From a virus, in UHGV virus genome UHGV-1461890: a stretch of DNA of 41,432 nt, one strand, 5' to 3'. The notes under the pieces are model-generated. The model searched no databases and was not told the origin of the DNA. It was given only the letters and a program-made list of their open reading frames with translations. Every line of letters begins with the position of its first letter. The first letter of the stretch is position 1. Both the position numbers and the translations under genes were made by a program. This document shows positions 1 through 224 of the stretch, one piece after another.

Positions 1-50
1 CTGGCGATGGCTCTGGCTCTGGCGATGGCTCTGGCTCTGGCGATGGCATA
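1..50 (+). repeat. tandem 18-nt/hexamer repeat (CTGGCGATGGCTCTGGCT)n; in frame 3 codes Gly-Asp/Gly-Ser dipeptides
   Basis: Direct reading: the 18-nt unit occurs 2.7 times at 1-50; codons from position 3 read GGC GAT GGC TCT GGC TCT. Same repeat family as at 41376-41432. Confidence 0.8.
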
Positions 51-224
51 AAAGCCATAAATGGCGATACTATCTATCAAATAGACGGCATTGCAACAAT
101 TATAAAACAGGTTAGAAATAACATAGCAAAAGGTTATATTTTCAACGATGATTTATCCTTAACACCTTGCTACATAGTAAAAGGACATAACAAATTTGCT
201 CACGGCGAAACAATCAAAAAGGCT

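Follow-up and report, generated by a model that had tools for sequence, protein, structure and literature searches.

The window analysed in this work is the whole 41,432-nt sequence of the virus genome UHGV-1461890, and it opens inside a short repeat rich in Gly codons. This raises the question of whether the repeat encodes protein, to which gene it belongs and what such a tract could do. The initial annotation described a (GGCGAT/GGCTCT)n array over positions 1-224 and read it, in frame 3, as a low-complexity linker open for 74 codons into the ORF ending at 518. Our analysis confirms the array but restricts it to bases 1-47, which form a perfect GGC-GAT/GGC-TCT hexamer repeat (TRF: period 18, 2.6 copies, 100% matches; also period 6), whereas bases 48-224 are ordinary, non-repetitive coding sequence.

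A gene across the ends of a temperate phage genome

From base 3, GGC alternates with GAT, TCT, TCT, GAT, TCT, TCT and GAT, in this order, and a last GGC precedes ATA AAA. The translation in frame 3 is GDGSGSGDGSGSGDG, followed by IKAINGDTIYQ..., and bases 1-2 (CT) are probably the tail of a cut TCT codon. The frame that had been reported as open over 74 codons continues for 171 sense codons up to the TGA at 516-518. As the initial annotation had argued, this is not expected by chance: given the base composition, the probability of meeting no stop is 0.004 for a run of 74 codons and falls to 3e-6 for 172 codons. A second array of the same kind (GGC-TCT/TAT/GAT), absent from the earlier reading, closes the window at 41376-41432; positions 41340-41432 begin with ATG GAA AAG, encode MEKIKEFLKIELGSGSGYGSGSGDGSGYGYG and are open to the last base of the window. 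The pattern GGCNNTGGCNNTGGCNNTGGC (GGCNNT x 3 + GGC) has 12 matches in the window, all located in 3-47 and 41376-41432, compared to none in 100 shuffles. All the Gly codons of the two arrays are GGC (18/18), a usage with a probability of about 2e-11 under independence, since GGC represents 25% of the Gly codons in the remaining genome. Since both ends of the window lie in the array and an ATG is found upstream in frame at 41340, these pieces are parts of one gene, which spans the ends of a complete temperate-phage genome and whose assembly was broken within the repeat:

41340..41375, plus strand: start codon and conserved N-terminal peptide MEKIKEFLKIEL (translation; homologues begin with MEKIKEFL)
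41376..41432, plus strand: 5′ part of the array, (GGC-TCT/TAT/GAT) x 9.5, encoding GSGSGYGSGSGDGSGYGYG (TRF, translation, pattern scan)
1..47, plus strand: 3′ part of the array, codons read from base 3, encoding GDGSGSGDGSGSGDG
48..518, plus strand: conserved 156-aa C-terminal domain, with the stop codon TGA at 516-518 (translation, homologues, model)

Unless the genome is handled as circular, the first ORF of the window is therefore mis-started, base 225 being merely the first in-frame ATG that the ORF lister could use; the actual gene starts at 41340, crosses the junction and has its stop codon at 516-518. The earlier proposal of a circular genome, the end of which meets its start, is borne out by the presence of the missing 5′ part of the gene at the far end of the window.

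The two ends cannot simply be pasted together. Their direct join (41432 to 1) is one base out of frame and reads ...GYGYG LAMALALAMA*, no exact terminal overlap of at least 6 nt was found between them, and two to three mismatches are present in each of the overlaps that keep the register (11, 17, 29 and 47 nt). The out-of-frame join and the lack of exact overlap indicate that the repeat was incompletely assembled. The visible tract includes three GYG motifs. Without any overlap between the ends, the minimum is 35 residues for the tract and 203 aa for the protein; a length of about 187 aa is obtained for the protein if the 47-nt near-overlap is a single region with population variants. The tract of the closest intact relative (P0001, 93% identical) is about 70 aa long.

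The gene map of the window is that of a complete temperate phage, whose sole gap is the split gene:

32111-33607, minus strand: serine integrase
34441-34866, minus strand: CI-like repressor
36561-37496: YqaJ exonuclease
37511-38353: RecT
39036-39470: SSB
39486-40199: C5 methylase
40265-41014: DnaD-like loader
41065-41352, plus strand: DUF6948 gene (Pfam PF22253, E = 5.7e-29)
41340 across the ends to 518, plus strand: split Gly-X gene
2906-3289: DUF1064
4014-5480: large terminase
5482-7485: P22-like portal
8927-9949: capsid
10692-30290: tail genes
31183-31893: amidase

Since a prophage would end beside its integrase, the contig corresponds to a circular or circularly permuted form that was opened within the repeat. 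A megablast of positions 1-6000 of the window against deposited phage genomes gave no match.

Several other features of this genome deserve mention. The tail gene region includes a single ORF of 3,782 aa (15917-27265, plus strand), which represents 27% of the genome and in which an ART-PolyVal ADP-ribosyltransferase domain was identified at residues 2188-2354 (E = 1.8e-21), indicating a giant "polyvalent" protein. It is followed by a gene encoding a BppU-type baseplate protein (27317-29203, plus strand) with a weak collagen-like stretch of triplet period at residues 159-184, a further Gly-rich repeat of this genome. A second coding repeat, unrelated to the Gly-X array, is found at 1871-1927 (plus strand; 21-bp tandem repeat, 2.7 copies, 88% matches) in the ORF 1559-2137, which shows weak coiled-coil and YabA-like Pfam matches. 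The DnaD-like gene contains an inverted repeat with an 11-bp stem at 40616-40641 (plus strand; CTTGGTATACCA...TGGTATACCAAA), followed at 40674-40717 (plus strand) by 21-bp tandem repeats and then GTAGTTGTAGTTGTAGTAG. This region (40616-40717) looks like a replication origin embedded in an initiator or loader gene and is a more conventional origin candidate than the Gly-X array.

The window ends at this location since short-read assembly failed to get across the repeat. In a set of 139 non-redundant loci, 26 contig ends lie at most 200 nt upstream of the domain, i.e. in the tract, compared to four at most 200 nt downstream. The repeat accounts in this way for the ends of this genome and for about a fifth of the related contigs, which end at the tract. 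In some database entries, the array is read in wrong frames (LAMALAMA..., WLWLWRW...) or includes an N run or scaffold gap (L124, around 2900-3000; protein P0125), which we attribute to assembly or gene-calling errors caused by the repeat. Its location exactly at both ends of the contig, and their out-of-frame junction, could suggest that the array does not code for protein and is a satellite, or that it arose at contig ends as an artefact of assembly, adapters or vector. However, the frame of the array remains open over 171 sense codons and leads into a domain for which hundreds of homologues exist, and intact tract genes are present inside long contigs and in prophages of 100-250-kb bacterial contigs. 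Moreover, the same ends are found in the ENA assembly ERZ27229672, in which this phage was assembled independently: its two MEGAHIT contigs (L152, k119_100390, and L153, k119_288479; 10,332 and 31,060 bp) both stop inside the repeat, the window extending 18 nt and 8 nt deeper into the array. The vector or adapter artefact that the initial annotation had envisaged as a refutation is also contradicted by the recurrence of the tract, with differing codons, in well over a hundred independent assemblies. The probability that we leave to a satellite or artefact is negligible.

A family of phage proteins and its DUF6948 neighbor

A word-indexed search with the C-terminal 156-aa part retrieved 831 homologues, and an exhaustive profile search retrieved 983 clusters at 50% identity. 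Since the intact homologues carry the same tract, the choice of a coding tract over an intergenic satellite, already made from the open frame, is well founded. None of these homologues carries a Pfam domain, the family has no match in Pfam, PHROG, NCBIfam and PADLOC, and a literature search on Gly/Tyr-rich low-complexity proteins of phages returned nothing on it. Disordered Gly-rich regions encoded by tandem repeats are a well-known kind of feature; the family itself is undescribed in the libraries and literature searched.

Our comparison relies on 149 loci taken from viral and genome collections, including 97 complete loci; 106 tracts were scored for their register. Nearly all members of the family have a short N-terminal helix, a (Gly-X)n tract and the conserved C-domain. 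The intact ones start with M-E-x-[ILV]-K-x-F-L-x-[VIL], followed by two to three further residues, the tract and the C-domain; ME is found at the start in 72 of the 97 complete loci, and close homologues begin with MEKIKEFL. The N-terminus of the window protein (MEKIKEFLKIEL followed by GSGSGYGSGSGDGSGYGYG) fits this ME-x-[ILV]-K-x-F-L peptide and (Gly-X)n tract. Its C-domain (48-515) shares 62-93% identity with its closest homologues and has all their invariant positions; the motifs FAHG and WHNxLTGSCxxG are also present. More divergent members have a degenerate N-region rich in G, Y, S, D, N and C. Fusion of further domains ahead of the tract is possible, as shown by one locus (L055, around 2700-3000) that has an extra N-terminal domain (...CENGFHFCKRISEPFGYYDKDARLFEVEAGG...) before a short GY/GD tract. 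Most of the members come from phages and prophages of gut Clostridia: as hosts, genome records mostly name Acutalibacteraceae, Ruminococcus, Oscillospiraceae and other Clostridia MAGs, besides some Bacteroidales.

The AlphaFold model of the C-domain, obtained from a 20-sequence alignment (mean pLDDT 85), predicts a six-stranded antiparallel sheet followed by six helices, a fold for which no match was found in the PDB. In the full-length model of a complete homologue (P0003), a helix is predicted at residues 2-8, the domain has a pLDDT of 80-93 and the tract a pLDDT of only 26-30, so that the tract is predicted to be disordered. Residues C41, A51-H52-G53, W99-H100 and L103-T-G-S-C107 are invariant in close relatives; in a diverse set of 40 members, the same positions are at least 90% conserved, only Ala and Thr being strictly invariant. 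Judging from this conservation, C41, H52, W99-H100 and C107 could form a metal site or a Cys/His active site.

The only relatives that we found in cultured phages are the "ribonuclease inhibitors" WCS66356.1 and WIL01335.1 of the Riemerella phages vB_RanS_CRP5 and CRP6 (L150/L151), whose homologous C-domain (28% identity) has retained the AHG and TGxC motifs. Recombination and helicase genes are found close to their gene, which is also located in the early region. However, their N-terminal region is not a Gly-X tract but a BspA-type leucine-rich repeat (Pfam LRR_5), i.e. a protein-binding module, and no DUF6948 gene is located upstream. Their name therefore derives from the LRR N-terminus and does not reflect a tested activity. 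The circular "complete" CRP5 record is likewise opened inside the homologous gene. Another true homologue, A0A8S5SZK3 from Siphoviridae sp. ct6h44 (BFVD; 54% identity, TM 0.89 over the C-domain), is annotated as "Lamprin", presumably an automatic label that results from the Gly/Tyr-rich repeat and has nothing to do with lamprey cartilage lamprin.

In the window, the end of the DUF6948 gene, with its stop codon, overlaps the start of the Gly-X gene by 13 nt (41340-41352), an overlap also found in another locus (L005). A DUF6948 gene is located directly upstream in 104 of the 106 related loci with enough upstream DNA, whereas the other neighbors of the window gene are almost never shared by related loci. 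Therefore, the two genes behave as a two-gene cassette found in the early, replication and recombination regions of otherwise different phages. A literature search for DUF6948 returned nothing.

Composition and turnover of the Gly-X tract

Complete tracts are 8-119 aa long (median 60), and 80 of the 106 tracts scored show at least 90% perfect Gly-X register. The X positions (about 3,470) are mainly occupied by S (n = 1253), Y (n = 1040) and D (n = 758), far ahead of N (n = 110), F (n = 61), C (n = 55), R (n = 40) and A (n = 28); the other residues have at most 26 occurrences each, with a single one for Gln. Median fractions are 0.50 for Gly, 0.16 for aromatic, 0.10 for acidic, 0.22 for small polar and 0 for basic residues, the acidic fraction reaching 0.31, and the median number of [G/S][Y/F][G/S] motifs is 10 per tract. 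Ala, Thr, Pro and Val, each one mutation away from the common codons, are 30-100 times rarer than S, Y or D; in particular, a single change in a Ser (TCY) or an Asp (GAY) codon gives Ala (GCY), yet Ala is about 30-40 times rarer. His is likewise one step away and rare. The rarity of these one-mutation neighbors indicates that the composition is constrained beyond the needs of flexibility alone. Among prokaryotes, a Gly-X register kept so strictly with Ser, Tyr and Asp is uncommon.

Within a locus, codon usage is almost perfectly uniform, with one Gly codon and one third base for the X codons (TCT/TAT/GAT or TCC/TAC/GAC). Between lineages, Gly is encoded by GGC, GGT, GGG or GGA and Ser by TCT, TCC, TCA, TCG or AGC, while the residues are unchanged, which argues for selection on the peptide and against a conserved DNA element. 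Across loci, GGC represents 83% of the tract Gly codons. A GGC excess is general in prokaryotic low-complexity regions, in which aromatic residues are generally under-represented (PMC6821194); the codon bias of the tract is therefore ordinary, but its Tyr content is not. Tract length varies between loci with 100% identical C-domain DNA; for example, the tracts of two such loci (L019 and L017) differ by 18 aa, in frame, and the tracts of two others (L037 and L038) are rearranged relative to each other. Uniform codons, the 18-nt superperiod and length variants between identical flanks fit slipped-strand mispairing or unequal recombination. The length and the unit order of the tract thus appear to change quickly, in steps of 6, 12 or 18 nt that keep the frame; all these data come from short-read assemblies, so that some length differences between identical loci may reflect repeat collapse. 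A phase-variable on/off repeat was also considered and rejected, since the unit is 6 nt, with 18-nt superunits, and the variants found between identical flanks stay in frame.

The main alternative to a specific role of the tract is that of a passive flexible spacer, which would merely separate the N-terminal helix from the C-domain and whose composition would have no role of its own. It agrees with the predicted disorder, with a length that varies even between near-identical phages and with the abundance of Gly and Ser, the classic linker residues. The word "linker" used in the initial annotation is in this respect structurally apt, since a helix and a confidently predicted domain flank a tract with a pLDDT below 30, but a neutral Gly-Ser linker would have another composition: aromatic (Tyr/Phe) and acidic (Asp) residues are both kept in 87 of 97 tracts despite the general scarcity of aromatics in prokaryotic low-complexity regions (PMC6821194), the one-mutation neighbors are avoided and the Gly-X register is strict. 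We consider the passive spacer a serious possibility, although less likely than not. If the tract adopted an ordered repetitive fold (a silk-like cross-beta sheet, a polyglycine-II bundle or a Ca-binding roll, for instance), the protein would be a structural or fibre element. Such a fold would suit the strict dipeptide period, in which every second residue is Gly as in the (Gly-X)n of fibroin, and the regularly spaced Asp, which could bind cations. It is nevertheless at odds with the AlphaFold confidence below 30 in the tract, with the avoidance of Ala, the driver of fibroin packing, with the lack of any RTX-type hydrophobic position or triplet period and with a location among early and replication genes rather than structural genes. 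We regard it as quite improbable. Collagen-like (G-X-Y)n and RTX (GGXGXDXUX) repeats were rejected as descriptions of the tract since its period is two residues, with no hydrophobic position.

Two further alternatives concern the DNA of the array. The array could work as origin iterons, a packaging site or a protein-binding array lying in a reading frame by chance; the lambda origin lies inside gene O. The location in the replication module beside the DnaD-like loader and the predominance of GGC (83% of tract Gly codons; 18/18 here compared to 25% genome-wide) would agree with this. Nonetheless, it is the amino acids that are conserved and not the DNA, given the four Gly codons, the NNT and NNC sets and the five Ser codons: as regards conservation of the repeat DNA among relatives, which iterons should display, codon sets differ by lineage. 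The cassette is also found to move between phages whose replication genes differ, the DnaD-like gene contains a more conventional origin candidate (40616-40641 and 40674-40717), and a GGC excess is common to prokaryotic low-complexity regions (PMC6821194). When compared to shuffled sequences, the sense strand folds only modestly better (z = -2.35 and -0.99 for RNA/DNA folding) but the antisense strand does not. Overall, a DNA-level function is very improbable. The other alternative is targeted hypermutation, resembling that of diversity-generating retroelements, which would vary positions 1-2 of the X codons with position 3 fixed. The confinement of variation to hexamer positions 4-5 and the exclusive NNY codons of the minor residues N, F, C and H recall such a process. 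However, no reverse transcriptase was detected among the 30 window ORFs scanned with Pfam (a set that includes nearly all the ORFs with sufficient length for one), the window contains no template copy, the pattern is confined to the two window ends, the spectrum is skewed to S, Y and D compared to the 15 residues expected from AAY mutagenesis, and unit duplication explains the codon uniformity. There is hardly any chance that hypermutation is the cause.

Possible role of the tract

Taken as a whole, the best explanation of these data, which we hold with high confidence, is a coding Gly-X tract in a gene that wraps around the genome ends, with turnover by slippage and selection at the protein level; the functional proposal that we add to it is more tentative. 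The protein consists of a 12-aa N-terminal amphipathic helix, a tract predicted to be disordered and the conserved 156-aa globular domain. Slippage or unequal recombination would retune the length of the tract while keeping the frame and the within-locus codon uniformity, and selection would hold a composition of about 50% Gly, 16% aromatic and 10% acidic residues, the rest being small polar, without basic residues and with hardly any Ala, Thr or Pro. This acidic, Tyr-studded tract would make weak multivalent contacts with itself or with partner proteins, and would tether the N-terminal helix to the C-domain in an early function of the replication module exerted jointly with the DUF6948 protein. 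As a specific claim, that the tract is an active multivalent tether, and not a passive spacer, in this DUF6948-linked early function can only be put forward tentatively, and we consider it less likely than not; the Asp content (about 10-20% of residues), a difference from classical FUS-like domains, could oppose self-association. The leucine-rich repeat found at the same place in the Riemerella phages suggests, from sequence comparison, that the N-terminal region may be an exchangeable interaction module.

The organization of the protein has counterparts in known systems. Bacterial SSB has a Gly-rich linker and a C-terminal tip. The G/F-rich linker of DNAJB (PMC12126530) likewise tethers a terminal element to a folded core. 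Proteins with these disordered linkers share with the phage protein a short conserved terminal element, a Gly-rich linker and a folded domain, and in SSB and DNAJB the linker itself joins in intra- and intermolecular contacts; the replication and recombination gene neighborhood of the phage gene can be counted as a further likeness. The phage protein differs from them by the location of its tip at the N-terminus, hence a reversed orientation, and by its S/Y/D composition.

Silk offers another comparison. The heavy chain of Bombyx mori fibroin is made of (Gly-X)n repeats, GAGAGS or GAGAGY, in which X is mostly Ala. The phage tract resembles it by the presence of Gly at every second position, by an X that includes Ser and Tyr and by short, uniform and length-unstable DNA repeats. 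However, Ala occupies only 28 of about 3,470 X positions in the phage tracts, Asp is common and no beta strands are predicted; furthermore, fibroin is a secreted fibre whereas the phage protein is intracellular and early.

The low-complexity domains of FUS and hnRNPA-type proteins reportedly carry [G/S]Y[G/S] motifs, and interacting segments known as LARKS are also said to occur in proteins of low complexity. Like the phage tract, for which disorder is predicted, FUS/hnRNPA domains are Gly/Ser-rich and Tyr-studded, with many [G/S]Y[G/S] triplets, and lack basic and aliphatic residues. In contrast, the phage tract has a strict two-residue period, essentially no Gln, 10-20% Asp and a length of only 8-119 aa; it belongs to a phage protein of Clostridia and, with its median acidic fraction of 0.10, departs from the Gln/Asn-rich and nearly uncharged composition of FUS/prion-like domains. 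A stronger version of the multivalent tether would make the tract a FUS-like "sticker and spacer" domain, whose Tyr valence and length would be rapidly retuned by hexamer slippage and which would enter or nucleate a condensate-like assembly with the DUF6948 partner. This version is speculative and we judge it unlikely.

If this condensate reading were true, such assemblies would act early in infection or upon prophage induction in gut Clostridia, possible locations being sites of replication or recombination or the surroundings of a host target, and the roughly one thousand sequence clusters of the family would represent an unrecognised class of prokaryotic viral low-complexity scaffolds. Whatever the role of the tract, this work flags a large protein family of gut phages that is missing from Pfam, PHROGs and NCBIfam. 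Since Tyr-rich low-complexity regions are unusual in prokaryotes, this family is a reasonable test case for the role of such regions in phages.
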